Positions 3,656-26,348 of a stretch of DNA of 64,000 nucleotides are shown here, piece by piece. Positions within the stretch are counted from its first letter, which is position 1. Every line of letters starts with the position of its first letter. The stretch covers positions 302,436,001-302,500,000 of the forward strand of contig CM097883.1 in assembly GCA_044892505.1 (NCBI GenBank), written 5' to 3'. The notes under the pieces were generated by a model, which saw only the letters and a program-made list of their open reading frames with translations, made no database searches and was not told the DNA's origin. The stretch comes from Schmidtea nova (taxonomy: Eukaryota). Position numbers and translations under genes: made by a program.

Positions 3656-3839
3656 ACGTTATATTCACATTTTTATGAACTAAACTATTTCCATAAATTA
3701 AATGGTATTGATCTGTGTTTGGCTTGTTCTTAGTTAAATTTATTTCTATTTATTTAATCATATAATTTTTACACTCGACGGATAATATTAATCGTTGGTA
3801 ACATAATTGCTGCATCATAAAATGGGTTTGTTATTTAGT

Positions 3840-4924: not shown

Positions 4925-4942
4925 TGGGGGCTCAGCCGGGAT
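4925..4942 (+). promoter_or_regulatory. Primer-binding site, tRNA-Pro type
   Basis: TGGGGGCTCAGCCGGGAT, 6 nt after the 5' LTR; 16/18 identical to the classic tRNA-Pro PBS TGGGGGCTCGTCCGGGAT of MLV. Confidence 0.85.
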
Positions 4943-5298
4943 CAACTTCGTTTTATCGGAAAAATGTGAATGCAAAATCTGCAGAGAAGTTTAAAATGCT
5001 CGTGTCGTGTGAATAAATTTAATAAAAACAGAAAATTTGTAATTAAATCTAAATTATGTACAAAAATAAACAACAAACACAACAGCAAATAAAAGTAAAG
5101 TTATAAAAATCGAATGCATGCATAAATAATTTGTCGGGACGACAATTTTCGGAAACACGGGGAGAGTAAATAAATGCTAAAAGATGCAAAACGAAACATA
5201 TTACTACTTTAAATAAATATTAAAAGACACAAAACGAGACATATTACTACTTTAAAATTATAAAAACAACAAAGTTAAAACGATTATTTATTCAGCAA

Positions 5299-5760
5299 AT
5301 GGAGGAAAAACTGAAAGAAATCGAAGAATTTCTCAACACAGAAAGCGAAACATTAGCAACAATTGGCAAGAAAATAAACCGATTTAGAGAACTTGATTTT
5401 CAAGAACCCACAACACAGACCGAGGAAACAGATGAATTAATAAAGATAACAGAAAGAACAAGTAAAATCGACATAAAAACCCGCTACAAATGGTACCGAG
5501 CACGACTAGAGAATGCGGAGCTAAACATTAGATGCAGACAAATAGAACAACAATTAACCCCAACATACAATCGATGGAGGGCGCAAGGGGTAGAAGCAGC
5601 GAAAAAATACCGACAGTGCTATATATGTGAAAACAACGAGACACAAATTATGTTTTTACCTTGCGGACATTTCCGTTTTTGTAAGATCTGTGCCAACAAG
5701 CGTGACCGGTGTCCGATGTGCAACTTTACTGTGAATGAAAAAATTATGGTTTATTTGTAA
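5299..5760 (+). CDS. 153-aa protein with C-terminal IAP/MDM2-type C3HC4 RING finger (E3 ligase-like)
   Basis: CYICENNETQIMFLPCGHFRFCKICANKRDRCPMCNFTVNEKIMVYL* has the spacing and extreme C-terminal position of XIAP/cIAP RINGs. No BIR seen. Acceptor tttattcAG-caa-ATG. Confidence 0.9.
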   Translation: MEEKLKEIEEFLNTESETLATIGKKINRFRELDFQEPTTQTEETDELIKITERTSKIDIKTRYKWYRARLENAELNIRCRQIEQQLTPTYNRWRAQGVEAAKKYRQCYICENNETQIMFLPCGHFRFCKICANKRDRCPMCNFTVNEKIMVYL

Positions 5761-7336: not shown

Positions 7337-9019
7337 GACAAGAAAATTGAGTATACAAAAGTAATCCCCTTGAGAAAAGGAGCAAAGAGTGTCGTAGTAA
7401 AACCAACGGAAAAGAAAGTCGGCAGCAATATTAATAAAAAAGACAAAATTAGTACTACAACAAAAACAGCAAAAAAGCAGAAAGCCGGCAAAGATAACAA
7501 CAAGAACCCACAAGGGAGTAAAGCGAGGAAGATAATAAGAGATAAATCGATTATCGAAAACGATAAATTGTCAGTAGTAAGCAACAGCTCAAGTAACAAA
7601 GAAAACCAAACGGAACCCAAGGAGAACCAAACAAGTGAAATTGAAATCGACGAAACTAACAACGATAATATCGAAGAAATAGAACACGAGATAGAACAAG
7701 AAGGAGAAACCGACGAAACTAACAACGATAATATCGAAGAAGTAGAAAACGAGGTAGAACCAGAGGTAGAAATCAACGAGAGTGATAACGAAAGTATAAT
7801 ATCGGATAACGAAGTAATAAGAGAAACAGAAAGCGATTCAAGCTCGAGTGAAACAGAAGACGAACATAACAACGAACTAGAAACAAGAGGAAACGAAAGT
7901 AAAATAACTCAAGACAGCGGAATTGAAATGGGTGAACCAAGAGAAGAAATAAAGGATAAATTTTCAGGAGAACCGTTTAACGGAGATGCGAGTAAATTAG
8001 AAACCTTTTTAAAGGAATTTGGCATATTCGTGGAAGTATGCAAGTGGAAAGCGGAAACAACAGTAAGCAGAATTCAATTATATTTGAAAGATAGTGCATT
8101 GGACCTATATTTGGAAGCGAAAAATGGTACCAATCCACCTACAAGCTGGTCAGCGATAAAGGATTTTTTCCAACAAACATTTGGAATAAATAAAGTGCTA
8201 AGCGAGGCATTCATAGAATTTTCAATGAGGAAACAAAAGATGAATGAATCTAATGCGGTATACGCGAGCGAACTGAAAAAATTAGCAAAATCGGTATTCA
8301 AGGATGGAGGTCCAATAAACGAGGAGTTAATGGCAGCCATCTTCATAGGAGGATTAAGAAGACCCGACATAAGAGCGCAAGTGGGATGCCAAGGATGCAA
8401 AACCATAGATCAAGCGTTAGAAACAGCTAACAGATTCGAATTACATATGATAGGAAGTGAGGGCAGAATTTATTTAGCCATGGACACAGCACAAAACGAA
8501 CCAGAAGTAAACCTCAACAATCACATTCCAAATTCGCAACAATTAAACCGACCACCCCCTCAACGAAGGAATGAAGGAAATAAAGTGCAGAACTTTGGAA
8601 ACCAAAACAATTACAACCCTCAAGGACAAACAAAACAATGTAAAACATGCGGGAAGTTGGGACACTGGCAGCAAGAATGCTATCAAAATTTGAATTGCGG
8701 AAAATGTGGAGTTAAAGGACATTCGGAGAGTAGATGTTCTACGATAATCTGTTTTAATTGCGGACGACCTAGTCACTATTCAAGAAATTGCGGACAAAAA
8801 AGTAATCAACGAGGAAACTGGCAGAGTAATGGGAACCGACCAAATTACGGAAATCAAACAAACACCGTAAACCGACAAGATTATGGGAACCAACAAGTCA
8901 ATAATAACAATAGTCAGAACAAAACTACCACCAAAGAAATACATTTGATGCAAGAAGTTCAAAGGTTGACGGAACTGATAAACAATACGACGAGAGGAAA
9001 TCCGCAAACCAATCAATAG
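7337..9019 (+). CDS. gag: Gag (acidic/basic N-terminal extension, capsid-like domain, three CCHC zinc knuckles)
   Basis: Frame open from 7337; first ATG only at 7928. Capsid-like FNGDASKLETFL..RKQKMNES..YASEL. Knuckles CKTCGKLGHWQQEC, CGKCGVKGHSESRC and CFNCGRPSHYSRNC (about 8639-8785). Confidence 0.93.
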   Translation, partial: DKKIEYTKVIPLRKGAKSVVVKPTEKKVGSNINKKDKISTTTKTAKKQKAGKDNNKNPQGSKARKIIRDKSIIENDKLSVVSNSSSNKENQTEPKENQTSEIEIDETNNDNIEEIEHEIEQEGETDETNNDNIEEVENEVEPEVEINESDNESIISDNEVIRETESDSSSSETEDEHNNELETRGNESKITQDSGIEMGEPREEIKDKFSGEPFNGDASKLETFLKEFGIFVEVCKWKAETTVSRIQLYLKDSALDLYLEAKNGTNPPTSWSAIKDFFQQTFGINKVLSEAFIEFSMRKQKMNESNAVYASELKKLAKSVFKDGGPINEELMAAIFIGGLRRPDIRAQVGCQGCKTIDQALETANRFELHMIGSEGRIYLAMDTAQNEPEVNLNNHIPNSQQLNRPPPQRRNEGNKVQNFGNQNNYNPQGQTKQCKTCGKLGHWQQECYQNLNCGKCGVKGHSESRCSTIICFNCGRPSHYSRNCGQKSNQRGNWQSNGNRPNYGNQTNTVNRQDYGNQQVNNNNSQNKTTTKEIHLMQEVQRLTELINNTTRGNPQTNQ

Positions 9020-12000: not shown

Positions 12001-15000
12001 AATACAAGTAACCAACACCGGAGAAACAGAAGTCGAAGAAGAAATAATAATAGAAGAAATAAACGATTTGACAGAAGACGAAACGAGAGGGGCGAATGTC
12101 GAAAATGTACAATTAACCCAAGAAATGGAAAGATGGTTAGAAGAAAGAGCTAACGAACCAAGAGATGTCACGGAAGAAACAGGACGGGCAACAAGGTTTG
12201 TGGAAACAGGTACAGGAATGGATAGACGACCTCGAGGTAGACCCAAGACAGATCCAGCAACTGTAGTTATAAGAAATAAAGATGAAAAGAGACAAGATCA
12301 ATGGGAATTATGCTTAAGGAAACTAAATAAAATTGCGGAGATGAAAGAAAAAGAGACAACACCAATATGTCAAGGGGAGGAATGGATATCGAAAACAATA
12401 ATGGAAATATTGGCAATAATTGATCCGGAATTGAGAAAATACTGGCGGATAACTGAGATAAGCGAAAAGGCGAAGTCACTATACAGCGCAATCTCCCCCA
12501 TCTTACCGGAATTCATAAAAGAAAAGACGAAGTCAAATCATTTAGACTGGCAAGGAACCACTACGTTAATAAAGAAACTGACAGAAGGAGCGGAAACAGA
12601 TAACAAATACGTAATAGCCATTGCATACACGATCTACAATCTGTTGACACTGAGTAGAGGTCGACCAAAACCCACTGCATTAGAGAGACATATAAAAAAT
12701 ACCGCAAAGATTATAGCTAGAGAAATAGAACCTTACGTCATTAACAAAGGAGGATGGGAAACATTTATAAAAACTAACCAGAAGAAAACGCAAGCGAAGA
12801 ATATGAAGAAGAAATTCGAAAAAATATTGGAAGAGTTAGAAAAAGAACAAGCAGAAACAGGAAACGCGAAGTCATCAATGAATTTGAGCTCTATAATAAT
12901 GATGATGTTGATATGGATGATTAGCACCGATAGCGCAACAGCATTCGAAGTGTTTGATTGCGACCAAATGAAGTTAGGAGAAAAGTATTCATTGAGAGGT
13001 ACGGAGCAATGTAAAGATGCAACTCCAGTAGAGTTGCAAAAGATTAAAAAAGAACAATGGTACCACGTGTATCAAGAAGCAGAACTCATAAAGACAATGG
13101 TGAATGAATGTAAGGTGCAGAAGACGAGATTCGCATTTTACTGCGGGAGAGGACATTATTCAGCAATTGTCATGCCAGGAACGGAAAGAGAACCAATCGT
13201 GTTACAAGGAGAGGACTGCGAAGCACTGTTTAAACATGGAGAAGTAACAACAAGAGATAAAATCAAGATAAGAGGAAAGCCAGGAATGATGCTGCAACAG
13301 ACATACTATGTAGCAGGACGGATTACGGGAGGAGAAGGATATTGTCAAGGAGAAACCTACCCGATATTCGGAGTACCCGCAACTAACTTAGTGGTGATGG
13401 ATACGTATATAGTCGAATTAAAAAGCTATGAAGCATTCTTCGAACCAACAACGGGAGAAATGAAAACGTTATCCATGTGTAAAATCGACAGGAGCATGTG
13501 TCAAACGGGAATGTCAACATTAGTATACAAACCAAAGGTGAACGAATGTCAATTACAACTGCTACAAGGAGCACAGTTCGACGAAATTCAAGGAAAGACA
13601 TTCCAGGAAGAAGACGATGACGACAAAGCTAGAGCAAAGCACCTCAAGGAAGCTTTGGAGAATAAAAGACAATTGAAACCAGATCATAGGGAAAAACGGA
13701 TAGAGATGAGAGCCACACCAACAGTATTGATAACCACAAATCAGGATGTGGGAATGAGATTCATAAAAGGGAAAGCAACCCTTAAGTGTAGTACAACGGT
13801 ATACGAAACAAATTATCCAGGAATATATGTGTCAAAACAAGAAGTACCAAATGCGAAACCCAAAATCGACACAATGGATATCAAACTACACCTGTATGTG
13901 AATAATAAAATGGATTTCCTATTCCATAGAGGACAAGCCTCATTACAAAAAGTGTACTACGATCTGATAAACAATGATTGTATACTGAATCGAGAAATAT
14001 TAAAGACAAAGTTGGCCGTAGCGATTACGAATCCAGATAGCGCGATGCCATTATTACCACTGAGAGAAGGACATTTCGGAAGAGTGGTTGGAGAAGCAAT
14101 GTATGTATACATTTGCGAAAAGACACACGCGTCGCTAGCAGCAACAACGCAGTTGAAACCTGGAACCTGTACAAACGAGTTGGAAATCGATTACAAAGGA
14201 AAAGTACGATACGTTCAACCAGTGACGAGAATCATCAATCCACCAGGGTTTGAACCAAATCCATTCAACTGTAGTAATGCGTATGGACCACTTTATCAGA
14301 AACCAGATGGTAAATGGGTTATGTTCCCAGGAAGATCCGAAGTGATAGCACCAAGAGAATTCGAGCTAATGCAGTTGTCAAAGGATAGGCAATTCAGCGA
14401 CGTAGATGTCTCAAACAACGGAATATATAGTCCAAAGGATTTAGAAGCAGCAAGGCAGAATATATTATTTCCAGCGAGAAGAGAAGCATTACTGTCAAAT
14501 ATCGTAACGATAACGGGAGGAACGGATTATCGAGAAGGACCGAATTATGAACTGTTGTTGTCACCAGCACATTTCAAGAAAGCCACGGAAAATATGATGA
14601 AAGCAATGTGGGGAAGATTCCTGATATTTGGACAAATGATGGCTGGAATACTGGGGGTCATATTAATAATCCAAATCGTCAGAGTGATAATAACGCAAAT
14701 GTTAGCGTGTTTCGATATCTACAAGAGAGAAAAGAAAGTGAATTGGAAAATGGTAGTAGGGTTTTTACCATTCCTTGCGAAAACAATGGTGTTGCACGGA
14801 CACTCAAAAGATATCCATCGAATAAAAAGACTCCTAAAGATACTAGCAAAAATGAAGGGAACAGATGAAGAAGTAGGACGAAAATTTAAAAAGATAATGA
14901 ATGACGAACAAGCAAGACAACAGCTCAAGAGAGAAAGAAAAGGTTTATGGGAGAGGGTGAAAGGATATAAAACCCAAAATGATTCGAGTGACGACGATGA

Positions 15001-18000
15001 TGACGATGACGACTATAAGGGAGGACAAGTGTATAAGAACCAAGCACCGCAATACATCGAAAAGAATCCAGCCGACGCATGGAAATGTTACGCACCTCCA
15101 CCAACCATGTATCAAGAACCACTACAAGGAGGAAAAAATAGCACGATGCAAATGATGCCAATGACAAATGTATACCCCATGATACCAGAAGATTATAAAA
15201 TGAGAAGATGTAGAAGCGTAGATCCACAAGGAGATACACACACGATCGCAGTGATGTCATCAAACACAGGTCCAGTATTAACCACGACAATAGAGATTAA
15301 CGGAAGAGAAATCGAAGCAATGATCGACACTGGAGCAAATATTTCCGCCATCGATATCAAATGGATACCACAAGAGCAAAGACGGGAAATAGAAAGGACA
15401 AACGTCCATGTAATTGCATGTAGCAAAGAAGTTGTAGAAGTAGCAGGAAGATGGTGGGTAAAAATACGCCACTTAAATACAGAAATCGATACGTACGTAG
15501 CAGTCATACCAGCATTAAGCGTACCTTGCATTATCGGAACAGATTTGATGCCAGCGTTATTTAAAGAAATCGTAATCGATCTCGGAACAATGAGATTAAA
15601 GGATCGCACCGGACAAATATGCGCAATAGAAGCCAAGGTAACGAGTTCAAAGCAAATGATAATACCGGCAAGAAAGGAAAAAATATGTTACGTAAAAATA
15701 GATCCGACAATCCAAGGCGATATGATTTTCGAACCAAGTAAGAGATTCGAGAAAAGAAAAGCGTTGCCAATGGCAAGAGGACTAGTCAACATAAACGATA
15801 ATGGGGAAATCCCAATAAACGTAGTAAATTTCGACGAGGAGGATAAAATAATCTACGAAAACGAAAGACTAGGTAAACTAACCCCAATGATGGATATCGA
15901 AATACCAATAGAAGGGGCAGAGAAAGATAAAGAACCAACCTGGAATATCGATAGTGAATTATTAAATGAGGAGCAAAAGAAGCAGTTAGAAAAACTTCTG
16001 ATAGAGTATAAGGACATATTTGCAGCATCCGATTTAGATCTAGGAACATGTGATGTCACGTTACATACAATACCATTAACAGATGAAACACCAATTGCAT
16101 TAAGGCCGTACAAACTAGCGGAAGCACAGAAAGCAGTAGCAGAAGCAGAAGTGAAGAAAATGTTGGATGCAGAAGTAATCGAACCAAGTTGCTCACCCTG
16201 GCAATTTCCAGTGGTAATGGTAAAGAAGAAAGACGGAACACAGAGATTCTGCATAGACTACCGAAGATTGAATACAGTAACAAAACGAGATACTTACCCA
16301 TTACCAGACATCAACGAAATGCTACTAACATTACAGGGAGCAGCATATTTTACATCACTAGATCTGAAAAGCGGATACTGGCAAATAAAAATGAAGGAAG
16401 AAGATAAAGAGAAAACTGCCTTTACCATCGGTAGAGACCTATATCAATTTCGAAAGATGCCCTTTGGATTAACAAACGCACCAGCATCATTTCAGAGATG
16501 CATGAATTTCGTCACCCATGGAATAAAGCAGTGTATGGTCTACATCGACGATTTATTAATCTACTCTAGCACGTTTGAACAACACATACAGGATATTCGA
16601 GATGTATTCGTTAGACTTAGACAATGGAAGTTAAAACTCAAGCCATCCAAATGCGATTGGGCAAAAGAAAAGGTTACATTTTTAGGACATATAGTGTCAG
16701 CAAAAGGAAAAGAACCGGATCCTAGAAACATCGACAAGGTAAAAGAATGTCCAGTACCAAAAACAATAACCCAGATACAAGAGTTTCTTGGATTGTGTGG
16801 ATACTATAGAAAGTTTATTAAAGATTACGCCGGAATCGCAAAGCCTATACAGGAGCTGGTAAAGAAAGATGTATCATTCATATGGGGAGATGAACAGCAA
16901 ACAGCCTTCGAGACATTAAGAGATAAACTGATAACCGCACCCATATTAGTACACCCAGACTTCAAGAAGCCATTCTTACTTGCAACAGATGCAAGCGGAT
17001 ATGCAGCAGGAGCAGTATTAGGACAATACGACGACGAAGGAAAAGAACGGGTAATCGGATATTATAGCCGGACATTCAAAAAGCATGAGAAAAATTACTC
17101 AGTAACAGAGCGAGAAGCATTAGCAATTATACTAGCAATTAAACACTTTAAATATTTATTATGGGGACACATCATCTGCATAACAACAGATCACCAACCG
17201 CTTGTATGGTTAGGACAGCACAAGGAAACATCCAGTAGATTAATGCGATGGGCAATGCAGCTACAGGAGTACTCACCAGACATAAAATTTAAATCAGGAC
17301 GAGCGAATGCGAATGCAGACTGTATGTCAAGACTGACATTTCCGGAATTAACCGATCCTGATGTACAACGAATTTGTGTATTAATAGCAGAAGATTTAGA
17401 TTTTAGTGAGTTAAAGAAAGATCAACAGGAAGACAAAGAATTAGGACAGATCATAGAGTTCCTAACATCTCGAAATATGGAAGTATTCAAGGATAATAAG
17501 GAATTAAAGGAACATATAGGAAAGTATCAACATCGATATATAATAAATAAAGGATGGTTGTTAATACAAGATGGTGAAAAGAGATTGATGTGTTTACCGG
17601 AAAACAGAAGGAAAGAGATAATGACCCAATACCACGATGGAAAATTAGGAGGTCATATGTCAGAGAAAAAGACAATAAATCGTATGAGACAAAAATATCA
17701 TTGGCGAACAATGGAGGAAGATATTAAAGAATGGATTAAAAATTGTCTAACTTGCGCAACCAGAAAGGATAGTGGGAAGAAATGGAAAAACCCGCTACAA
17801 CCAATGCCAATACCAGCAGAGCCAATGACAACTATAGCAATGGACGTAATAGGACCATTACCAGAAAGTTTAAACGGAAATATTTATATATTGGTAATAA
17901 CGGATTACCTGACGAAATTCCCGGAAGCATTTGCCATGCAAGATCAAAAAGCAAAAACCGTAGCAAAAATTCTAGTGGAAGAAATATGTTGCAGATACGG

Positions 18001-21000
18001 AACTCCAAAACAAATACTCACAGACCAAGGAACTAATTTTATGAGCGAGTTATTGAACGAGGTGACAAACTATTTCAGAATAGCAAAATTGAGAACTTCA
18101 CCATATCACCCGCAAACGAATGGACAAACGGAGCGATTCAATGGTACATTGATTAGAATGTTATCAAATTACGTCAGCAGACATCAAACTGACTGGGACG
18201 AGTACATAAAATTATGCTTAATGGCATACCGAATGTCGATACATGCAGCAACAAAACTAAGCCCATTTCAACTTATGTATGGGAGAGAATGCAACATGCC
18301 CATAGATTTGGAGTATCAACCACCATTATCCCAATATATGGAAGATGACGACTACGTAACCAAATTCAAAGAAAGAATGCAGGAAATATGGAAAACGGCA
18401 GAACTAAACATTAAATTTTATCAGGAAAGTTATAAGGATTTGCACGACCAAAAGAAAAATGTTAAAGCGAACGATCTAAAACCAGGAGATTGGGTGATAA
18501 TAGAAACTCCCGAAATAATACCAGGAACGGTTAAGAAACTCCAAAGACCTGGAAGAGGACCTTATGAAATTATATACAAAAAGGACAATAATGTCAAAGT
18601 TAAGCTGATAAACCGACCATTAATACGACCCATATATGTAAACACCTGCAGATGTAAGAAGGTGCCTAAAACGATAACTACAACACCAGAGAATCGAATA
18701 ATAACCAGATCACAAACAGCCAGGATAAATATGCTCAGAGCAAACACAAGCGAAGACGACAAAGCAGAAATAAGGCAAAAAGAAATCAGAAATATAGAAA
18801 TCATATTGAAGGCGAGAGAGATAATGGGAAGATGGCATGTTAAAGACGAAGTAGGCATATCAAGGGACATTAGACATATAATTAGCCGTTACGCACAAGG
18901 ATTACCAACCGAACCAATTATTTCTGAATTATTGGAAAAAATCCCTGAAATACTCTTATTGAAAGATGTAGGAGGACAACCAGCCTTACACAATGCGATA
19001 GAGTGTAAAAACATTGAAAGAGCAAAAGAATTCCTAAAAATCGCAAAAGAAACAAACCAAAACTTGGACGTAGGGAATCGTGAACAAGAAACTCCATTAA
19101 TGACAGCCGCAATCCACCAAGCAGATAAAGAAATGGTAGATTTATTGATAAAAGCCCATTTCAGTTGGACAGAACGAGATAGAGAAGACAAAACAGTGCT
19201 AAATCACGTAATATGGAGTTCTCACCAACCAATGCTTAAATACATAATAACTAACTCCACGTGGGAAATAGACGAACTAGTAAAAGGAGACATTATCAAA
19301 GAGGCAATCAAAATTGGTAAATGCAACACGATCCGTAAGTTAATCAAATGGAAACGACCAGAAGATGATACATGGGTCTTAGACATAAACGAAGTATACA
19401 GCGAAGGACAAAACGCGCTGTTAAGATATCTTTTGAAATTTACTTGTGATCAGAAGACATTACTAACCGTATTAGACAGAGGAAACATAAACATCACAAA
19501 GAATGAAGAAGAATACAAATTCGATATAGAGAAGGAAGCCTTATTCAACAAGATTAGGAAATGGTGTGCGAAACCACTTGATAAACTAATAACATACAAA
19601 GACATAAACAATTTTAACGATAAATACCAGACGATAGTAAGTGAGTATGAGGAATTAGTAAAAATCTTAAACCATCCCGAAAAATGCAAACAGGTTTTAG
19701 AGAAAAAAGAAAGAGAAAGTAACAAGAAACTCACACCACTCTTCAAAGCAGAAGCACCATACCAAGCTAGACTAGATGCGATACAAGAAAAAGCAAAGGA
19801 GTTGCTACCGGAATTCGAGAATTGTAAACACGCATTAGAAATACTCGGTGCATTAGTTGAAAAAGTACACGCATACGCAAAAGGAACATACAATGGTAAC
19901 GATATAACGACTTTAAAAAAGGAGATGCCAGTAACATTTTTACTACCAAAGGACGGAATAATGCCCATACATAGAGCTCTACGAAATGGCAAAGATAAAA
20001 AAGTAATGGAAATTGCAAGAGTAATGCTAAACTGCGGAAGCAACATGAATATGGTAGACGAGAAAGGAGATACACTCATGATATTTGCAGCAAGGGCTAA
20101 AACAAAAACAAAGGTGTTGGAAGAACTATACAAAGCAGGTGCAGGACTTACAGGAAAGACAGATAAAGATAATTCAATTTTGGATGTAGCATTACTAACA
20201 CATAATTGGGAAATGGTCAACTTCATTAAAACAATCTCAAATCAGGAAGAAATAGATTACCTAACTGATACGGTCAAGAAACCCAGTGTACTAACAATGA
20301 TGCATAATGTCGAACTAACAGAAGCAATACTTACGTGGATAAATCCGAATACTAACGAACCAGCATTCAGGATTAATGAGTTTACAGAACATAACCAAAA
20401 CTGGTGTATAAGAAGTGCCTTAATAACATATAAATGGCCAGAGATATTGAAGATGTTTATGGAAAGAAAGGATCTAAGAATCACAAACAGCCCGAAAGAA
20501 GAAAAATACACAGGCAAATGGAAAGAATTGATGAAGACATACATCAACAATTGGATCAAGGCCAAAAAGGAAATCTTAGAATATAAATCCACTAACAAAG
20601 TAATACCGGAGCATGTAGAAACACAAGAATTTGAGGCAAGTAATCTAACGACATTAGCATATGCAAAATTGATAGAAGAAATCAATGTCGAGGACGACAT
20701 TTTCGACGAGCCAGGGGGAGATGACAATACAGACAGTGACGACGATAACAACTCAGAAAATTCGAACGATCAAGAACCACCCGATAAAGAGGAAAACGAG
20801 AGAAAAGACAAGAAACGAGACAAAGAAGAAAAGAAAAATGAAGACGAAAAACAAAAAAATGAAGAGGGAGAACAAAGAGACAAAGGAGATAAAAATGACA
20901 CCCAACGAACAGGTTACAAATCAACCATAAAACCATTCTTCAAACCAGAGTTACTATTATTAACAGTGATTTTAACGTTAGTTAACCCAAGTCAAGGAAT

Positions 21001-23278
21001 GACATGTGAAGAAAGGGCAATAATACAAATAAAAAACGCAAAAGGAATCGAACGAGTATGTTGGTCAAAAAAGGACAAAATCACGGAACAAAATAGTCCG
21101 ATGGATTGCAGAATCTCAGAACACGAGCAAGAAATCATAGAGATCAATGACTTAGATCTAAATACCTGGTACAAAATATGCACCGTTAGAAAACAAAAGC
21201 ATCCAAGATCACACAACACAATCGCATGTGCAAAATACCAAACACCTAAAGCAGCCATGACAATACAACAGTCACCCAAAGGAGATTACATCATCGGAAA
21301 ATGTGGAAGAACAGAGACACAAGGAACAGAAAACAAAAAACCCCAGGCAATAGATAAGCAAACAACACCAACCCTACGAATTACAATAGAGAGGCCCGAA
21401 GCAAGAGTTGCCACAAACGAAACCGAAAGAGTGACTTACCAAATGGAAGTATTATGTTTAGCACTCATACTAATAATGATAAAACGATTAGAGGAAGGAA
21501 TAGAAATTGAAACTATGACAATAACAGAAGTAGAAGATACACAGAATACTAACATAAAATGTTGGGCGAGGAATAACGAGGAAATCGGCGTAAATGAAAT
21601 AAGGAAAAGTCGAAAACCAACAACAAATAAAGTAATTAAAGTATCCGAAGTAAAAGCAGATAAGATGTATAAACTATGCCTATTAGAAAAAGAGACAAAC
21701 AAGAAAGGTACCACAAAATGTAAAACATTTCAACCCGGAGAAGTAATAAAGTTCAGAAGGAGAACGAGGAAGAGAAATAAACAAATCAAGCGGAAAGTAA
21801 ACATAACATTAGAAATAAAAGAGATAGAACCAAATGTGAAAAGAGTATGCTGGAGGAAGTACGAAAAAGAAGTAAATAAAAGAACGACACCACAATGTCG
21901 AACAAAAACAGGAACAACGACGATTCAAATAAAAGGTTTAGAAAGTAAACAAACCTACGAAATATGTTTGGTAAAGAAAAATGATCAGATAACGGTAAAC
22001 GACCTAGAATGCGGAATATATACAACTTCATCCGGAACAAGAACCAAAACGTTAACACGGAAAAATAAAAGGAAACAACAAAACAAAGGAAAACCGAAGT
22101 ACACCACTACCTTTAAAAACAATAAACAACCAACAAACCAAGAAGTTACGACGAAACCCGAGAGAAAAACATCAGCAACTCTAACATTATGGAAAATAGA
22201 GAATAAAACATTGGAAATATGTTGGATAATAGTACAGAAACATATAAGAAGACAATCAAGAGAGTGCAGAAAAACAAATAAAGAAATCAAGATCGAAAAA
22301 CTACAATTTAATAGCGAGTACGAAGTATGCGCAATAGAAAAAATGGACGCACTAGGAAACCAACAAGAAAGATGCGAAACCTACTATACACCAGCAAACG
22401 CGACATCAAAAGGAGTAGCAAGGAAAATCGAATTCAAGGAACTAAGCCAAACGAATGAACAAATGGACGCAGAAAAAACAATAACCGACCCTCAAGCAAA
22501 ATGGACACCCGAAGAAGTTATCAAAGAAGTAAAAAGAAAGCAAGAGGAACGAGAACAATTAATGAGAAAACTAAAAGGACAATACGGAATAATGTTCAAC
22601 CAAAGCAAATCTATACAAACAGACGAGAATAAACAAATCAAAGAATTAATTGGCTTAGGAATATTAACAGCGACCATACCAGTAATAATCGCCTTATCAG
22701 CTATATGGATACGCAAGATAAACCCAAGAAAATCAACAACCCAATGGCTAAATATAGATAATACAAGCCATGGAGTAGAAATACTAGAAGAAAAAGCACG
22801 AGAAGAAACAAATAAGAAAGAAACAAAAAGCGGAAAACTAGGAATAAACAACGAAGACAAGGAAATAAAAGAGATTAAAGGAGAAGAGAAAAAATATGAA
22901 AGGCGAACCAGAAGCCTACCGCAGAGTTCAAAATGGTTGGGTCTAACAGTAATACTGACATTAATCAATAGGGAAGAAGCAACAAACCTACAAGCAGGGA
23001 TAAAAATAGTAAATGTCCAGGAGGTCGAGAAAATATGCTGGAGTAGAGAGGATGAACCAATTGGGAAGGATAACCCACTAAAATGTATAATCAGAAAATC
23101 CGACCAGGATATAGTACGAATAGAAGGGATGGATAGAGGAATCATGCATCGGATATGCATAATAGGAAAGGAAAAGAAGTCGGGGCTACCTAAGACAGTC
23201 GTATGTCAAAAATATGAAACGCCCAGACTTGAGTGGTATAAAGTAAAACCAACAAAGAAAAGATCAAAAACACAATAG
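9029..23278 (+). CDS. pol: 4749-aa polyprotein (UBL-Bcl2-like-Env-PR-RT-RH-INT-ANK-FN3/TM)
   Basis: Uninterrupted 14.25-kb ORF in the same frame as gag; domains listed separately below. Confidence 0.97.
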   Translation: MMRKIESENERLNRESQARHAQEWARIQREDEQKQQERERQPLRINMLRETNQTDTREKETTPEINSINPNPTDNESRKGVIQDEGEAEKEIEKEVETEINQEERKEIWKRGMMVIMPNKSVFRFQYNVKEEVGILFNKVNQMVPGVTKLPREAFLQIEGVPKVKLELTDIWENLGVVETKRNVMIIKEIEPEEIPPPIRHETRIRRIFEGKMIRRRLKEIDELGKKMEKVEVIEDKNELTPEINKNKTKPTENIQGETNQTAHINMLRNTTREFSDEEEDSDISSLAGDILNEPEDENKEREVIKTSEPTQIKVDEIQKLLDNSLEVIYNEEFMDKKQYRKFMKALLQMNYKEWLQDREVDMLNRYVRKLIEEPLLNYTISIIINTSTPRIWIKTPFTDDIYRWVEDRLGSSYKNKFIYSQNRLVKKRTHLVETGKWPGEITLLSICDEKEEENLQEVAKEANTCFERRIEPRLEYAKERVLRKNLNSLIEQIIPQVKKHRKELMRSEYEKLKRCIECIRDTSHTRWSQISHDKLIAKMGKTMFRQGKITDLKISVELPNEDTKEIEVVADCTIKELINVINETLVQREPEDEWEDDIIIQYNEHVLWDHDERRLYKIGIWDNHQTIHVIRMDDTPRETAKDEKRERERRKEVVRKLQQIVEIYRNWRTWPEWENVLEELNLNRRIRTPVEKQWNEKGKCWEPKEGEYEEEYERGMEDDCEPEMRRVCMVTRKATPIDLDGPETAAIWLEKEKQKTEEFVEILKTNAHGKRKVIKGLADFFVVNGEDITCLRKVAKAIAEYKRVNEWCPEQLDHVIRKWRNQEFSQEIPQKVHLRIIYPNKDKEELWVGIAEKIRDIKKKLRYEPPFHLQHQGRSLDNSLEIGITPAQLDLMNTLTVEAIAGQPLKRKEENHKPHGSISTPSPMKSVLTPGTSSRRSETTPRETRERTPPQPYDVDEILTDSDDMIEELTELTREKDDNIFERIQELPTTIQVTNTGETEVEEEIIIEEINDLTEDETRGANVENVQLTQEMERWLEERANEPRDVTEETGRATRFVETGTGMDRRPRGRPKTDPATVVIRNKDEKRQDQWELCLRKLNKIAEMKEKETTPICQGEEWISKTIMEILAIIDPELRKYWRITEISEKAKSLYSAISPILPEFIKEKTKSNHLDWQGTTTLIKKLTEGAETDNKYVIAIAYTIYNLLTLSRGRPKPTALERHIKNTAKIIAREIEPYVINKGGWETFIKTNQKKTQAKNMKKKFEKILEELEKEQAETGNAKSSMNLSSIIMMMLIWMISTDSATAFEVFDCDQMKLGEKYSLRGTEQCKDATPVELQKIKKEQWYHVYQEAELIKTMVNECKVQKTRFAFYCGRGHYSAIVMPGTEREPIVLQGEDCEALFKHGEVTTRDKIKIRGKPGMMLQQTYYVAGRITGGEGYCQGETYPIFGVPATNLVVMDTYIVELKSYEAFFEPTTGEMKTLSMCKIDRSMCQTGMSTLVYKPKVNECQLQLLQGAQFDEIQGKTFQEEDDDDKARAKHLKEALENKRQLKPDHREKRIEMRATPTVLITTNQDVGMRFIKGKATLKCSTTVYETNYPGIYVSKQEVPNAKPKIDTMDIKLHLYVNNKMDFLFHRGQASLQKVYYDLINNDCILNREILKTKLAVAITNPDSAMPLLPLREGHFGRVVGEAMYVYICEKTHASLAATTQLKPGTCTNELEIDYKGKVRYVQPVTRIINPPGFEPNPFNCSNAYGPLYQKPDGKWVMFPGRSEVIAPREFELMQLSKDRQFSDVDVSNNGIYSPKDLEAARQNILFPARREALLSNIVTITGGTDYREGPNYELLLSPAHFKKATENMMKAMWGRFLIFGQMMAGILGVILIIQIVRVIITQMLACFDIYKREKKVNWKMVVGFLPFLAKTMVLHGHSKDIHRIKRLLKILAKMKGTDEEVGRKFKKIMNDEQARQQLKRERKGLWERVKGYKTQNDSSDDDDDDDDYKGGQVYKNQAPQYIEKNPADAWKCYAPPPTMYQEPLQGGKNSTMQMMPMTNVYPMIPEDYKMRRCRSVDPQGDTHTIAVMSSNTGPVLTTTIEINGREIEAMIDTGANISAIDIKWIPQEQRREIERTNVHVIACSKEVVEVAGRWWVKIRHLNTEIDTYVAVIPALSVPCIIGTDLMPALFKEIVIDLGTMRLKDRTGQICAIEAKVTSSKQMIIPARKEKICYVKIDPTIQGDMIFEPSKRFEKRKALPMARGLVNINDNGEIPINVVNFDEEDKIIYENERLGKLTPMMDIEIPIEGAEKDKEPTWNIDSELLNEEQKKQLEKLLIEYKDIFAASDLDLGTCDVTLHTIPLTDETPIALRPYKLAEAQKAVAEAEVKKMLDAEVIEPSCSPWQFPVVMVKKKDGTQRFCIDYRRLNTVTKRDTYPLPDINEMLLTLQGAAYFTSLDLKSGYWQIKMKEEDKEKTAFTIGRDLYQFRKMPFGLTNAPASFQRCMNFVTHGIKQCMVYIDDLLIYSSTFEQHIQDIRDVFVRLRQWKLKLKPSKCDWAKEKVTFLGHIVSAKGKEPDPRNIDKVKECPVPKTITQIQEFLGLCGYYRKFIKDYAGIAKPIQELVKKDVSFIWGDEQQTAFETLRDKLITAPILVHPDFKKPFLLATDASGYAAGAVLGQYDDEGKERVIGYYSRTFKKHEKNYSVTEREALAIILAIKHFKYLLWGHIICITTDHQPLVWLGQHKETSSRLMRWAMQLQEYSPDIKFKSGRANANADCMSRLTFPELTDPDVQRICVLIAEDLDFSELKKDQQEDKELGQIIEFLTSRNMEVFKDNKELKEHIGKYQHRYIINKGWLLIQDGEKRLMCLPENRRKEIMTQYHDGKLGGHMSEKKTINRMRQKYHWRTMEEDIKEWIKNCLTCATRKDSGKKWKNPLQPMPIPAEPMTTIAMDVIGPLPESLNGNIYILVITDYLTKFPEAFAMQDQKAKTVAKILVEEICCRYGTPKQILTDQGTNFMSELLNEVTNYFRIAKLRTSPYHPQTNGQTERFNGTLIRMLSNYVSRHQTDWDEYIKLCLMAYRMSIHAATKLSPFQLMYGRECNMPIDLEYQPPLSQYMEDDDYVTKFKERMQEIWKTAELNIKFYQESYKDLHDQKKNVKANDLKPGDWVIIETPEIIPGTVKKLQRPGRGPYEIIYKKDNNVKVKLINRPLIRPIYVNTCRCKKVPKTITTTPENRIITRSQTARINMLRANTSEDDKAEIRQKEIRNIEIILKAREIMGRWHVKDEVGISRDIRHIISRYAQGLPTEPIISELLEKIPEILLLKDVGGQPALHNAIECKNIERAKEFLKIAKETNQNLDVGNREQETPLMTAAIHQADKEMVDLLIKAHFSWTERDREDKTVLNHVIWSSHQPMLKYIITNSTWEIDELVKGDIIKEAIKIGKCNTIRKLIKWKRPEDDTWVLDINEVYSEGQNALLRYLLKFTCDQKTLLTVLDRGNINITKNEEEYKFDIEKEALFNKIRKWCAKPLDKLITYKDINNFNDKYQTIVSEYEELVKILNHPEKCKQVLEKKERESNKKLTPLFKAEAPYQARLDAIQEKAKELLPEFENCKHALEILGALVEKVHAYAKGTYNGNDITTLKKEMPVTFLLPKDGIMPIHRALRNGKDKKVMEIARVMLNCGSNMNMVDEKGDTLMIFAARAKTKTKVLEELYKAGAGLTGKTDKDNSILDVALLTHNWEMVNFIKTISNQEEIDYLTDTVKKPSVLTMMHNVELTEAILTWINPNTNEPAFRINEFTEHNQNWCIRSALITYKWPEILKMFMERKDLRITNSPKEEKYTGKWKELMKTYINNWIKAKKEILEYKSTNKVIPEHVETQEFEASNLTTLAYAKLIEEINVEDDIFDEPGGDDNTDSDDDNNSENSNDQEPPDKEENERKDKKRDKEEKKNEDEKQKNEEGEQRDKGDKNDTQRTGYKSTIKPFFKPELLLLTVILTLVNPSQGMTCEERAIIQIKNAKGIERVCWSKKDKITEQNSPMDCRISEHEQEIIEINDLDLNTWYKICTVRKQKHPRSHNTIACAKYQTPKAAMTIQQSPKGDYIIGKCGRTETQGTENKKPQAIDKQTTPTLRITIERPEARVATNETERVTYQMEVLCLALILIMIKRLEEGIEIETMTITEVEDTQNTNIKCWARNNEEIGVNEIRKSRKPTTNKVIKVSEVKADKMYKLCLLEKETNKKGTTKCKTFQPGEVIKFRRRTRKRNKQIKRKVNITLEIKEIEPNVKRVCWRKYEKEVNKRTTPQCRTKTGTTTIQIKGLESKQTYEICLVKKNDQITVNDLECGIYTTSSGTRTKTLTRKNKRKQQNKGKPKYTTTFKNNKQPTNQEVTTKPERKTSATLTLWKIENKTLEICWIIVQKHIRRQSRECRKTNKEIKIEKLQFNSEYEVCAIEKMDALGNQQERCETYYTPANATSKGVARKIEFKELSQTNEQMDAEKTITDPQAKWTPEEVIKEVKRKQEEREQLMRKLKGQYGIMFNQSKSIQTDENKQIKELIGLGILTATIPVIIALSAIWIRKINPRKSTTQWLNIDNTSHGVEILEEKAREETNKKETKSGKLGINNEDKEIKEIKGEEKKYERRTRSLPQSSKWLGLTVILTLINREEATNLQAGIKIVNVQEVEKICWSREDEPIGKDNPLKCIIRKSDQDIVRIEGMDRGIMHRICIIGKEKKSGLPKTVVCQKYETPRLEWYKVKPTKKRSKTQ
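9365..11727 (+). CDS. Three ubiquitin-like segments in the polyprotein N-terminus (about 9365-9595, 10688-10930, 11525-11727)
   Basis: Beta-beta-helix-beta pattern, e.g. KISVELPNEDTKEIEVVADCTIKELI..IIIQYNEHVL..LYKIGI..TIHVI and VHLRIIYPN..KIRDIKKKL..LQHQGRSLDNS. By eye only; no C-terminal GG. Confidence 0.55.
12302..12782 (+). CDS. Bcl-2-like helical domain within the polyprotein
   Basis: EIEPYVINKGGWETFI resembles BH2 (Bcl-xL HLEPWIQENGGWDTFV). A hydrophobic alpha5-like segment lies about 50 aa upstream, without the canonical NWGR. Confidence 0.65.
12878..14800 (+). CDS. env: Envelope-like class III fusion glycoprotein (chuvirus / herpes gB-like) embedded in the polyprotein
   Basis: Internal signal peptide MNLSSIIMMMLIWMISTDSATA, then FEVFDC..C..YHVYQ..ECKVQKTR..FYCG, about 14 ectodomain Cys, VGEAMYVYIC..C..EL, GIYS..DL..ILFP, and TM WGRFLIFGQMMAGILGVILIIQIV (about 14610-14705). 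This motif order matches chuvirus-type glycoproteins as I know them. Confidence 0.82.
15245..15615 (+). CDS. Aspartic protease domain
   Basis: INGREIEAMIDTGANISAI (DTG at 15326) and downstream IIGTDL flap motif. Confidence 0.95.
15940..17330 (+). CDS. Reverse transcriptase plus RNase H
   Basis: SPWQFPVVMVKKKDG..RFCIDYRRLN, LDLKSGYWQ, MPFGLTNAPASFQ, YIDD (16541), LGH; RNase H ATDASG..EREALA..TDHQPL. Confidence 0.98.
17372..18720 (+). CDS. Integrase (HHCC, DDE, GPY)
   Basis: YHDGKLGGH..CLTC; AMDVIGPL, TDQGTNF, NGQTERFN; GRGPYEI. No chromodomain seen. Confidence 0.97.
18960..20240 (+). CDS. Ankyrin-repeat region fused after integrase
   Basis: GGQPALHNAI, QETPLMTAAI..MVDLLI, DKTVLNHVI, DGIMPIHRAL, GDTLMIFAA..LEELYKAGA, DNSILDVALL: two clusters of degenerate TPLHxA repeats. 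Confidence 0.85.
20940..23278 (+). CDS. Signal/TM-flanked array of Cys-containing FN3-like repeats (polyprotein C-terminus)
   Basis: Five repeats of about 75 aa with pattern (I/V)CW..C..I.I..L....Y.(I/L/V)C..C..(Y/F).T. Hydrophobic segments LLLLTVILTLV, VLCLALILIMI, LIGLGILTATIPVIIALSAIWI and WLGLTVILTLI. Confidence 0.7.
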
Positions 23279-24396
23279 ATCGACCAGCAACTCAGAAGGA
23301 AAATACAACGAACAAACCAAGAGAAGGGAAGAGAAGCACCAATAAAACGAGAGAAAGAATATCACCCCAACAGGAGTGCGTATGCATAGCATTAATACTA
23401 GCAATGTCCAAACGTTTCGACAGAGGAATAATAATAGAACAAATGGCTATAACAATAAGAAAAACAAGCAGCGCCAAACTATGCTGGGGAACATACAACG
23501 AACCAAGGAAAGAATACCAAGTTCAGACAAGCGACGAATCACGAACAAACAAGGAAATCGAAATACAAGAAATACAAATGAATGAAGAAGGAAGTATATG
23601 TATATGGGAGAAAGGAACCCAAGAAGATCAACCCGGAATAGAAAATTGCAAGACATTCCAAAAAGGAGAAACTCTGAAATTCGATGAAGAAGAACTAACT
23701 AAAACAGAAAGAACTCTGACATTAACAGGACTCGATCAGACAGTTAAAGGAATATGTTGGACAAAACATAAACCAGAAGTGGAAGAAGACAACCTAACCC
23801 ACTGTAAAGAAATAAAGAATAAAGAAAAAGTCGAATTAAAGAAAATGGAAGTAAATAGGACATACGCGATATGTACCTTCACCAGAAAAGGTTCAGAAAA
23901 ACCAGAATGCGGATTATATCAGATCTCAGAGAAACTACCACAACAGACCGAACCAGGAGGCGTAGAAAACCAGACAACGAAAAATGACGTCAAACAACTA
24001 CTAAACCGCCATTGGTCTACACAAGAAGTAATGAACAAAGTCAAGAATCAAGTGCAGAAGGAGAAGAAGCCAGAGGCTCAAACCCAAAATGAGATAAAAG
24101 CGAATCAGAATAAAATCAAAGCAACAAACCATGGAAAACCAGTAATAGGACTAATCAGTATAGGAATATTAATAGCATATGGAATACTGACGACAAGCAT
24201 AATAGTATATTGGAGATACAGAAAGAAAAACAAAGCGACAGCCATACAATGGCCAGATATCAAAATTATGAAACAAGGAATAGAAATACCAGAAGAGATA
24301 CAAAAAGAATTTCAAAGAAGAACGAAAGGTAAAGAATTCTGGAAACAAATAGAAGATGAAGAACGATACGAAGAAAAGACGATAATGATGGTATAG
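23242..24396 (+). CDS. Frameshifted continuation of the FN3-like/TM cassette (two more repeats plus TM)
   Basis: Frame open from 23242, overlapping the polyprotein end. CVCIALILAMSKRFDRGI parallels VLCLALILIMIKRLEEGI in the main ORF. TM VIGLISIGILIAYGILTTSIIVYW-RYRKK. Confidence 0.8.
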   Translation, partial: SKTNKEKIKNTIDRPATQKENTTNKPREGKRSTNKTRERISPQQECVCIALILAMSKRFDRGIIIEQMAITIRKTSSAKLCWGTYNEPRKEYQVQTSDESRTNKEIEIQEIQMNEEGSICIWEKGTQEDQPGIENCKTFQKGETLKFDEEELTKTERTLTLTGLDQTVKGICWTKHKPEVEEDNLTHCKEIKNKEKVELKKMEVNRTYAICTFTRKGSEKPECGLYQISEKLPQQTEPGGVENQTTKNDVKQLLNRHWSTQEVMNKVKNQVQKEKKPEAQTQNEIKANQNKIKATNHGKPVIGLISIGILIAYGILTTSIIVYWRYRKKNKATAIQWPDIKIMKQGIEIPEEIQKEFQRRTKGKEFWKQIEDEERYEEKTIMMV

Positions 24397-24522
24397 GGGC
24401 GGATTATGACTGTAAATAATAGTGTAAATAACAAAGCATTACCGTAATAGTATGGGTATCGATATTATAAAAAATTGTAAAAAGATAGAAAAGCAAAGTA
24501 AATAATGTATATAATTTAGAAA

Positions 24523-24879: not shown

Positions 24880-24971
24880 ATAAATAAAGCGGAAAATTGT
24901 AAATATGTAAAAATAAAAACAAGAAAAATCAAAAATAAATGACAAGTCGAATGTATATATTATTGTAGAAA

Positions 24972-26348
24972 ATGGACAGAGAAGAACGAATAATCGAAAT
25001 TTTGAGACTAGAAAACAGAAAATGGAGCAAGAGACTCACATGCGGGAAATGTAACAATTTACTACGAGAACCCAGACAAACGATATGTGGATGTAGAATA
25101 TGTGCAAAATGTATACAAGAATTAGATGCAACAGGAATAACAACATGCCCAGAATGTAAAGAAGGAAGAATAGTGTTGGACGAAACCAGAACGGACAAAG
25201 CAACCCAAAGAGAAATTATGAGCACCACAACGGAGTGCGTAAATACACCTTGTACATGGCAAAGACAAATAAGTAATCTAGAAAACCATATGGAAAAGTG
25301 CGAGGAGAAAAGAACCGAATGCGAGAAGTGCCAACAGACAATAATTCTAAAGAAGAGAGAACAACACAAGGACGAATGTAAAGAAGAAGAAATCGCATGC
25401 GAATACTGCCAAACTCGAGAAACAAGGAGGAAAATTGAAGAAGAACACTTGAATATAACGGAAGAGAAAGTATGCGGACAATATACAAGCAAATGTCCAA
25501 ACAAGTGCGAAATAACAGAAGAAATAAAGTTACATGAACATTGGAAAGTATGTACCGAAAGACCAAGGGAATGTCCATATAATAAACAGGGATGTAAGGA
25601 GAAGCGGACGCGGAAAACAATGAAACAACACCTAGAAGAAGCAGCACTAATGCATGTGGAAATGACAAACGAAACGACAAAAGAAACGGAACAGACAATC
25701 CAGAAATTAGAAAAAGAAGTAGAATCACATAAGATAATGATGAGTTTACTACTAGAAACAAGAGAGCAGTTTGAACTAACCCGCCAAAGAATGGAAGAAA
25801 AAATAATAGCCATAGAAGAACTGGGAAAAGGAATGAAAATACAATATAATCAATTAATACGAGAAATTGACGAAAGAAGGGACTTACCAATTGCACCTTA
25901 CTTATGGAAAATAACAGATTTCCGAGACAAACTAACAGAAGCCCGAAATATGACTAAAACAGCAGTAATAAGCCCACCATTTTATTTATGGAAAAATGGG
26001 GTAAAAATAAGATTGAAGGTCTACCCAAATGGAGACGGAAGAGGACAAGGAACACACGTGTCAATATTTTTCTCGTTATGTAAAGGAGAATACGATGACC
26101 TAATAGAATGGCCCTTGAAAGTAGGAGTCATTATAAGAATCAAAAGTATAGGAAAACCAGTGGAAAAGTTCTTCGAGACAGACAAACATACGAGTACGAG
26201 TGAAAAACCAACAACAGAATGCGGACTAGCAGCAGGAGAACCAATGTTTATAAGGAAAGAAAACCTATGGGAACGACTATACGAGGACACTTTATACATA
26301 GAGATGGAGAAACACGAGAAAACGGATAGAAAAGGATGGTTGGCGTAA
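24972..26348 (+). CDS. Full-length intronless TRAF-family protein (RING, about 5 TRAF zinc fingers, coiled coil, MATH)
   Basis: CGKCNNLLREPRQTICGCRICAKC..CPEC; zinc-finger units such as CPNKC..HWKVC and CPYNKQGC..MKQHL; MATH YLWKITDF..SPPFY..YPNGDGRGQGTHVSIF..GEYDDLIEWP. Confidence 0.95.
   Translation: MDREERIIEILRLENRKWSKRLTCGKCNNLLREPRQTICGCRICAKCIQELDATGITTCPECKEGRIVLDETRTDKATQREIMSTTTECVNTPCTWQRQISNLENHMEKCEEKRTECEKCQQTIILKKREQHKDECKEEEIACEYCQTRETRRKIEEEHLNITEEKVCGQYTSKCPNKCEITEEIKLHEHWKVCTERPRECPYNKQGCKEKRTRKTMKQHLEEAALMHVEMTNETTKETEQTIQKLEKEVESHKIMMSLLLETREQFELTRQRMEEKIIAIEELGKGMKIQYNQLIREIDERRDLPIAPYLWKITDFRDKLTEARNMTKTAVISPPFYLWKNGVKIRLKVYPNGDGRGQGTHVSIFFSLCKGEYDDLIEWPLKVGVIIRIKSIGKPVEKFFETDKHTSTSEKPTTECGLAAGEPMFIRKENLWERLYEDTLYIEMEKHEKTDRKGWLA

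Follow-up and report, generated by a model that had tools for sequence, protein, structure and literature searches.

Seven FN3-like repeats in two diverged cassettes downstream of pol in a Burro-like retrotransposon of Schmidtea nova

Why does a giant retrotransposon, whose polyprotein already contains a fusogen, carry beyond its integrase a second set of domains with the layout of membrane proteins? The question is raised by a stretch of 64,000 nucleotides of Schmidtea nova (assembly GCA_044892505.1, contig CM097883.1, forward strand, positions 302,436,001 to 302,500,000), hereafter called the window, whose own numbering is used throughout. Self-comparison of the window identified a long terminal repeat (LTR) element of 29,592 bp, of Ty3/gypsy type and similar to the Burro elements of planarians. 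Its open reading frame (ORF) 9020-23278, of 4752 codons, is in the gag frame and ends within the region of interest. An earlier sequence-only reading had described there seven Cys-bridged repeats, resembling fibronectin type III (FN3) domains and arranged as two duplicated membrane-protein cassettes, which it took for a second surface system. The repeats, their arrangement and their counterparts in related elements are analyzed below; the positions of all features are reported in Table 1.

Seven repeats in two paralogous cassettes

Cassette 1 contains the repeats R1 to R4, cassette 2 the repeats R5 to R7. In the alignment of all seven, four columns (C, W, C and C) are invariant, while identity to R1 is only 17-30%. 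Three Cys are thus common to all repeats; a fourth, second in order, is found in five of the seven and is missing in R2 and R6. When repeat pairs were compared with shuffled sequences, 17 of the 21 scored higher than any of 1000 shuffles; for the remaining four, 1, 3, 12 and 28 shuffles scored at least as high. The best pairs between cassettes are R1/R5 (z 24.6), R2/R6 (z 17.4) and R3/R7 (z 12.6), and the two cassettes match each other by blastp with E-values of 3e-35 and 4e-21. Leaders, inner hydrophobic segments, transmembrane (TM) helices (28% identity) and tails, all of them present as the sequence-only reading had listed them, also pair across the cassettes. Since all these elements pair, and the repeats do so in order, the cassette must have been duplicated as a unit; R4 was either gained in cassette 1 or lost from cassette 2.

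The duplication is old, and both copies were kept, as had been proposed. Identity between corresponding domains is 27-37%, DNA identity reaches no more than about 70% even in the best-aligned pieces, of 74-84 nt, and about half of the residues conserved between the cassettes use different codons. The duplication is therefore far older than the insertion of the element, and both copies have been conserved as proteins. Over 790 codons the cassette frame is free of stops, whereas the other two frames contain 42 and 89. Cys content is 3.0-4.0% in the repeat regions and zero in both tails, which favours luminal repeats and cytoplasmic tails.

The ability of the repeats to fold as beta-sandwiches, on which the sequence-only reading had staked its FN3 assignment, was evaluated by structure prediction. 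AlphaFold2 built R1 as a six-stranded sandwich, with a predicted local distance difference test score (pLDDT) of 84 and two of the five models above 80; R1 is the only repeat modelled confidently. By using this model in Foldseek, all top matches were FN3 domains or monobodies (probability 1.0, with E-values of at least 0.012), and VIA-align superposed it on the third FN3 domain of sDscam (FNIII3) with a Z of 8.5 and a root mean square deviation of 2.3 over 71 residues, nearly all of the top 50 matches being FN3. For the model, R1 was trimmed at the predicted signal site; the alignment begins near strand B, and strand A is absent. The R1 model is thus a beta-sandwich resembling solved FN3 domains.

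Sequence profiles point in the same direction. The best match to Pfam fn3 (PF00041) has an E-value of 0.12, for one repeat out of seven (R3), below the gathering cut-off; other sub-threshold Pfam matches are Fn3_ELFN (E 0.097, R7) and Fn3_Dep-1 (E 0.086). A search of 1.84 billion proteins with the repeat profile gave 43 matches, 41 of which contain Pfam fn3 above cut-off. HHalign aligned the repeats with bacterial FN3 repeats at P 72, with a score of 30 versus 13 or less for 20 column shuffles, and in the ESM Atlas R3 adjoins fn3 clusters (0.90). Only four matches, all with an E-value of at least 0.9, were obtained by searching PDB sequences with the repeat profile, and none at E <= 0.001 by a fold search of BFVD. 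All together, an FN3-type fold is supported for the repeats, as far as modelling goes.

In such a fold the Cys pairs would join strands C-C' and F-G, as judged from conservation and strand adjacency in the model. On these grounds the repeats are presumably Cys-bridged; R2 and R6 lack the cysteine of strand C'. Exactly these two are preceded by a Cys-bearing hydrophobic segment (H2 and H2'), which suggests that H2 may be disulfide-bonded to its domain. The AlphaFold2 prediction for H2 plus R2, of low confidence (pLDDT 52), shows H2 as a helix and not as strand A.

A similar Cys arrangement is known from receptors combining leucine-rich repeats (LRR) with FN3 (FLRT, LRFN, LRRN, ELFN), in which an F-G disulfide joins a Cys after the F-strand Tyr to a Cys on strand G. 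The window repeats share these two positions, as well as the weak Fn3_ELFN match of R7; they differ in having no LRR, in the extra Cys-Trp and in the absence of strand A from the R1 model. No significant sequence match to LRR-FN3 receptors indicating a host donor was found. A bacterial donor was considered and rejected, the matches being generic and summed over many weak domains (best E 6e-9). The Env of walleye retrovirus (BFVD ranks 9 and 12, E 0.09) was likewise dropped as a precedent, FN3 domains in epsilonretroviral Env being unsupported in the portions consulted of PMC2717909, PMC9967133 and 10.1101/2021.11.05.467493.

Membrane topology and the frame of cassette 2

Both TM1 (22 apolar residues) and TM2 (25 apolar residues) have a positive C-terminal flank, with four and five basic and no acidic residues in the next ten, as type I membrane proteins do. 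The apolar cores of L1, H2, L2 and H2' comprise only 11 residues, a length typical of signal h-regions. In L1 the n-region is basic and the cleavage site is good by the -3/-1 rule of signal peptidase; the segment is about as hydrophobic as the internal signal of the element's own Env (KD19 1.57 versus 1.45). The site of L2 is poor. Release of the cassette proteins by signal peptidase is plausible, and no R-x-K/R-R furin site is found within the cassettes. The simplest topology consistent with these features would be signal, luminal repeats, TM and tail, twice over. The hydrophobic segment of 11 residues inside each cassette makes this topology uncertain: of the surface placement proposed earlier, the TM helices with their basic flanks stand, while the position of R2-R4 depends on H2, as discussed below.

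The layout of cassette 2 described by the sequence-only reading is complete in its elements, but interrupted by a frame change which that reading had missed. L2 and R5 close the big ORF, while H2' and all that follows, including R6 and R7, are in the -1 frame, within ORF 23242-24396 (384 codons). A canonical X-XXY-YYZ slippery heptamer is not found in 23100-23278 (13 occur across the whole big ORF), nor is a Met found before L1, before L2 or at H2'. Programmed frameshifting and separate initiation are thus unsupported. Most simply, the frame change, seen in one copy, is a private indel or an assembly error; owing to it, R6-R7-TM2 may not be made from this copy.

The post-integrase slot and the element that carries it

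Relatives of the element were gathered by a search with Pol, which gave 302 matches, the best 120 of them listed. A FastTree phylogeny, rooted at midpoint, was built on 36 sequences: the window, 16 carriers of the Env family PF24664, P0095 and 18 of 86 background sequences. The 14 best full-length reverse transcriptase (RT)-RNase H (RH) matches (P0072, P0073, P0079, P0082, P0083, P0087, P0089, P0094-P0098, P0105 and P0068) form one clade with the window, which is basal in it (support 1.0); their Pol identity is 40-45%. Env precedes pol in 13 of the 14, P0095 beginning inside Pol. A signal-TM pair follows the integrase in 11 of the 14, against 4 of the 102 other listed Pol matches with integrase, or 4 of 46 when only non-clade tails of at least 250 aa are counted. 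By eye, 12 of the 14 carry a signal-ectodomain-TM protein at this place; P0105 shows a signal and an immunoglobulin (Ig) domain with no TM found, and in P0068 neither signal nor TM was found. A second surface protein downstream of pol, as the sequence-only reading had supposed for the window, is thus an arrangement found throughout the clade.

The ectodomains in this slot differ in type (FN3-like, Ig, Cys-helical) and in repeat number. In ten relatives an FN3-like E-F motif marks one to three domains (16 domains, after 8 of 24 motif matches had been dropped by eye as protease, TM or other non-domain sequence); two others have a Cys-rich, helical-looking domain. With respect to the window, relatives have a single cassette, another Cys pattern and stronger signal peptides, and neither the inner hydrophobic segment nor the shared tail motif was seen in them. 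Homologues of the cassettes were found neither among 7942 candidates of near length for a query from H2 to the tail of cassette 1, nor among 7998 longer proteins scored with the repeat alignment (weak evidence, by the tool's own note), and a hidden Markov model (HMM) of the repeats gave no domain above 5 bits in the best 120 of the 302 Pol matches. What is conserved across the clade is the slot and its architecture, not the sequence.

Two further observations were made on the listed proteins. P0068, P0073, P0079, P0083, P0089, P0094, P0095 and P0096 contain at least two aspartic-protease-like domains, around env and after the integrase. Outside the clade, the gypsy polyproteins P0149, P0157, P0158 and P0163 have post-integrase tails of 760-1200 residues with hydrophobic pairs; no Pfam Env match was obtained for them, and the tails are possibly unrecognised envelope proteins.

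In the self-comparison the direct repeats of the window element are 99.74% identical; the LTRs differ at 7 positions over 3067 bp, and the insertion is therefore recent. Their TG...CA termini, the target-site duplication, the primer-binding site and the order protease (PR)-RT-RH-integrase are those of Ty3/gypsy (Metaviridae-like) elements. The primer-binding-site-like sequence is presumably complementary to tRNA-Pro, and was not found in the corresponding table of the GAG-ENV-POL survey discussed below (PMC13524379). The fusogen has, by hydropathy, an internal signal and a TM of its own, and is 33-39% identical to those of the relatives.

Burro/GYPSM1 are giant gypsy elements of planarians (Jurka 2007, Grohme 2018, reviewed in PMC6431247). 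In the description given by the main text of that review, they share with the window element a size of about 30 kb, long LTRs, a polyprotein of about 4,800 aa, a mononegavirus-like env (PF24664 in the window) in frame between gag and pol, a dUTPase-like segment between PR and RT (weak in the window), a cargo of ankyrins, MATH/TRAF and RING domains (found by Pfam in the window), and tandem repeats near the 5' end. The dUTPase/dCTP deaminase matches of the window are weak, with E-values of 0.13-0.43 in all five hits. Unlike Burro, the window element encodes TRAF in a separate downstream ORF and has a TAG between gag and the big ORF; no BIR domain was found in Pfam scans of 14 protein segments, and BCL2-like and ubiquitin-like domains were not confirmed. 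For the former, Pfam and PDB searches of the element segments gave no match; for the latter, a weak Ubiquitin_4 match was obtained (E 0.11). No named Burro protein is among the listed matches of the Pol search. The element, likened to Burro by published description only, is thus Burro-like, not shown to be Burro.

Other features of the locus are the following. The gag stop (9014-9025) lies in a CAA-TAG-CAA context, which resembles leaky readthrough signals, and is in frame with the 4752-codon ORF; in several relatives gag, env and pol are fused in a single ORF. The TAG is either a programmed readthrough site or a private nonsense change. Possible ubiquitin-like segments, of a kind also present in Burro, lie upstream at 10670-10999, and a possible BCL2-like one just before the Env signal at 12380-12799; neither was confirmed by the Pfam and PDB searches. 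ORFs of 175 and 207 codons, with no significant Pfam match, are contained within the LTR (3128-3655 and 3807-4430, with copies in the 3' LTR). The part of the 5' leader that separates the RING ORF from gag contains two tandem arrays, one with a 29-bp unit (about 10 copies, 6238-6527) and one with a 32-bp unit (about 6 copies, 6570-6759). The TRAF homologue is complete, and coiled-coil-like ORFs lie on either side of its gene (24520-24879 and 26434-27522). Just before the 3' LTR, 27562-28158 encodes a further small protein, the third with a predicted type I membrane layout (signal, helical ectodomain, TM and basic tail), with no significant Pfam match. A 177-bp satellite array (36500-46398, about 56 copies, 97% match) begins 5 kb past the element.

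Table 1. Features of the element and of the two cassettes, in window coordinates
Feature	Positions	Strand	Remarks
4-bp target-site duplication	1848-1851 and 31444-31447		flanks both LTRs
5' LTR	1852..4918	+	3067 bp, TG...CA
Primer-binding-site-like sequence	4925..4942	+	begins TGG, 6 nt past LTR
Upstream accessory ORF, C-terminal C3HC4 RING	5224..5760	+	Pfam zf-C3HC4_3 E 1.4e-11
gag ORF, CCHC knuckles	7337..9019	+	stop TAG, same frame as big ORF; blastp to relatives' Gag
gB-type / Monjiviricetes class III fusogen in polyprotein	12884..14692	+	PF24664 E 7e-71
Pol: protease, dUTPase-like (weak), RT, RNase H, integrase	15200..18799	+	
Ankyrin-repeat region, approximate end	18986..20480	+	Ank_2 E 1e-15; acidic/charged linker next
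Leader L1	20951..20998	+	basic n-region, 11-residue h-region, small residues at -3/-1; probable internal signal peptide
FN3-like repeat R1	20999..21247	+	six strands in model, strand A absent
Inner hydrophobic segment H2	21449..21481	+	11 residues, one Cys
FN3-like repeat R2	21497..21733	+	without second Cys
FN3-like repeat R3	21794..22027	+	strongly basic linkers on both sides
FN3-like repeat R4	22172..22390	+	no separate cassette 2 counterpart
TM1	22646..22711	+	22 apolar residues, basic C-terminal flank; 84-residue stalk before
Conserved cytoplasmic tail motif 1 (predicted)	22742..22792	+	8/17 residues identical to tail 2
Leader L2	22934..22966	+	11-residue h-region, 9/13 identical to L1, poor peptidase site
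FN3-like repeat R5	22976..23224	+	paralogue of R1; end of ORF 9020-23278
Frame change	23242..23278	+	big ORF overlaps -1 frame ORF, between R5 and H2'
Inner hydrophobic segment H2'	23377..23409	+	paralogue of H2, two Cys
FN3-like repeat R6	23425..23664	+	paralogue of R2; without second Cys
FN3-like repeat R7	23704..23931	+	paralogue of R3; Pfam Fn3_ELFN E 0.097
TM2	24139..24213	+	25 apolar residues, basic C-terminal flank
Cytoplasmic tail 2 with conserved motif (predicted)	24247..24396	+	runs to stop codon
TRAF homologue: RING, TRAF zinc fingers, coiled coil, MATH	24969..26348	+	MATH_2 E 1.5e-21, zf-TRAF E 3.8e-7
3' LTR	28377..31443	+	pair of 5' LTR

Surface proteins for attachment and other explanations

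To the reading that the cassettes are two tandem type I membrane glycoproteins, made as C-terminal cargo of the polyprotein, entering the endoplasmic reticulum (ER) by internal signals and serving attachment or adhesion beside the fusogen, we give about an even chance. L1 would reopen the ER translocon after the cytosolic stretch of Pol and ankyrins, in the way that Env's internal signal opens it nearer the start of the chain, and signal peptidase would cut after L1. In the lumen, R1-R4 would become FN3-type sandwiches stabilised by disulfides, with the short H2 passing through; TM1 would anchor the protein, and L2 would start cassette 2 likewise. Both proteins would then travel with Env to the cell surface and onto budding particles, and their most likely job would be attachment or adhesion, bringing the fusogen to target cells, with the basic linkers possibly binding glycosaminoglycans. 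The cassettes would thus fill the variable second-surface-protein slot common to the clade, here expanded and duplicated. Attachment is favoured by co-translation with Env and Pol, by the maintenance of the slot across the clade while its ectodomain changes, and by the basic linkers. The attachment or decoy role and the partnership with the fusogen, as advanced by the sequence-only reading, are still proposals.

Several observations weigh against this reading. The class III fusogens of rhabdo-like viruses work alone and are not known to need a partner, and the link of the cassette proteins to particles or to Env is one that we infer. In the comparison with the relatives, the hydropathy rule was fixed, but its threshold was picked after the tails had been viewed, and the window leaders, weaker than the relatives' signals, would fail it. 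That the relatives' domains are FN3 is a lead only: their ESM Atlas values are 0.83-0.86, HHalign gives P 17, and none matches Pfam fn3 at E 0.01. No sequence homology was found between them and the window repeats (HHalign P 0.65; E 13 with the relatives' HMM), so that a shared origin of the domains is not shown. In the cassettes themselves, L2, the weakest of the hydrophobic segments, has an acidic residue at -3. L1 and L2 are identical at 9 of 13 positions, above the level of the domains (31%), a degree of conservation unusual in a generic signal and suggestive of a structural role. Acidic residues before H2 and Lys-Arg after it give it the charge pattern of a stop-transfer sequence; if H2 does stop, R2-R4 would be cytosolic. 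N-glycosylation sequons are not enriched (5 versus 4.7 expected and 5 versus 2.9 expected), and the linkers of cassette 1 are very basic, with K/R:D/E of 10:1 and 15:2.

The last four of these features also speak for a topology in which H2 were a true membrane stop, or if L1 and H2 were folded strands, with some of the repeats forming a cytosolic scaffold or a nucleic-acid-binding module; all four hydrophobic segments, moreover, lie about 10 residues before the first modelled strand, in the position of FN3 strand A. We regard this mixed or cytosolic topology as improbable. With L and H2 both as membrane-spanning segments, R2 would end up on the other side of the membrane from its paralogue R6, and stretches of 11 apolar residues score far worse than the TMs (crude sums of 6.5 and 8.2 versus -0.1 and -1.2). 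The Cys pairs are conserved throughout the seven repeats, the relatives have plain signal-ectodomain-TM proteins at the slot, and H2 was built as a helix in the low-confidence prediction described above. Still less credit is given to the possibility of a passenger, namely a fragment of a host FN3 receptor, captured, amplified by template switching, functionless and starting to decay. It would agree with the cassette 2 frame change at no slippery site, with the failure of the homologue searches and with the habit of LTR elements to duplicate segments; it does not explain the Cys and Trp that stay invariant at 17-38% identity, the synonymous divergence at conserved residues, the open frame of 790 codons or the clade-wide slot, and a single indel is compatible with damage after insertion, or with an assembly error in an A-rich tract.

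The main rival keeps the same surface topology and assigns the cassettes another task: as decoy or mimic receptors, they would modulate the immunity of the expressing cell, with tails recruiting adaptors such as the element's TRAF, and would act with the RING, ankyrin and other apoptosis/ubiquitin cargo and not in entry. The cassettes are closely followed by a TRAF gene, and a RING gene precedes them; in Burro, domains of apoptosis and ubiquitin pathways make up most of the cargo (PMC6431247). Of the 17 residues in the tail motif 8 are conserved, compared with 28% identity for the TMs; FN3 pairs form the ectodomains of cytokine receptors, some of which are among the fold matches, and an Ig domain occupies the slot of one relative. 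The motif is, however, not apparent by eye in the relatives' tails, no clear TRAF-binding consensus was seen in tail 2, and co-translation with Env and Pol fits a particle component. A decoy function is, on balance, rather unlikely, if the best of the competing explanations.

Attachment proteins beside a fusogen are found in paramyxoviruses (H/HN/G with F) and in herpesviruses (gC/gD with gB), which separate binding from fusion. By analogy, Burro-like elements might be giant enveloped agents resembling retroviruses, with an entry system of two components of a kind not described for retroelements: a conserved class III fusogen and, encoded after the integrase, an interchangeable attachment glycoprotein with an anchor of its own (FN3 arrays, Ig or Cys-helical domains). 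The element in the window would carry it doubled, in a truncated and disulfide-locked FN3 variant; this wider proposal is tentative and somewhat doubtful.

The closest working analogy, which does not imply family membership, may be Atlas virus (PMC9094657, portion consulted): a variable attachment protein, GN, lies beside the conserved fusogen GC, and is freed from the polyprotein by a host peptidase, as in phleboviruses. Atlas virus is instead a Bel/Pao element with a class II fusogen, GN adjoins GC, and FN3 topology is described only within domain III of GC; in the window, the candidate attachment partner is separated from its class III fusogen by the entire Pol. GAG-ENV-POL errantiviruses with an Env of the herpes simplex virus gB type, reported from Nematoda, Bryozoa and Platyhelminthes (PMC13524379), share with the window element Ty3/gypsy Pol, a gB-type Env between gag and pol, and intact LTRs; they measure about 11-18 kb in the table rows consulted, against 29.6 kb. 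The main text of that survey (figure supplements lie outside this scope) does not mention fibronectin, immunoglobulin, ankyrin, TRAF, Burro or attachment, nor does that of the Burro review (PMC6431247, figures likewise outside) mention fibronectin, FN3, immunoglobulin or signal peptide. Literature listings and the beginnings of abstracts, a scope that leaves aside the original Burro paper, the Repbase entry and figures, likewise yielded no account of FN3 repeats or of a membrane protein encoded after the integrase in such elements. The element class and the env position are thus already published, and the post-integrase FN3-type surface module is, as far as searched, the new part.

Env-bearing giant elements such as Burro have been called possible proviruses (PMC6431247, main text), and may pass from cell to cell or from host to host. 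A second surface protein would provide a handle for testing extracellular spread and cell tropism. The polyprotein strategy would also be extended, the chain crossing the ER membrane for Env, returning to the cytosol for Pol and crossing again for one or two glycoproteins. A surface module in an element that already has a fusogen hints at an overlooked function in attachment or host manipulation, and a second-surface-protein slot that is conserved while its ectodomains are exchanged resembles, in its behaviour, a protein that binds receptors or faces the immune system under pressure to diversify.

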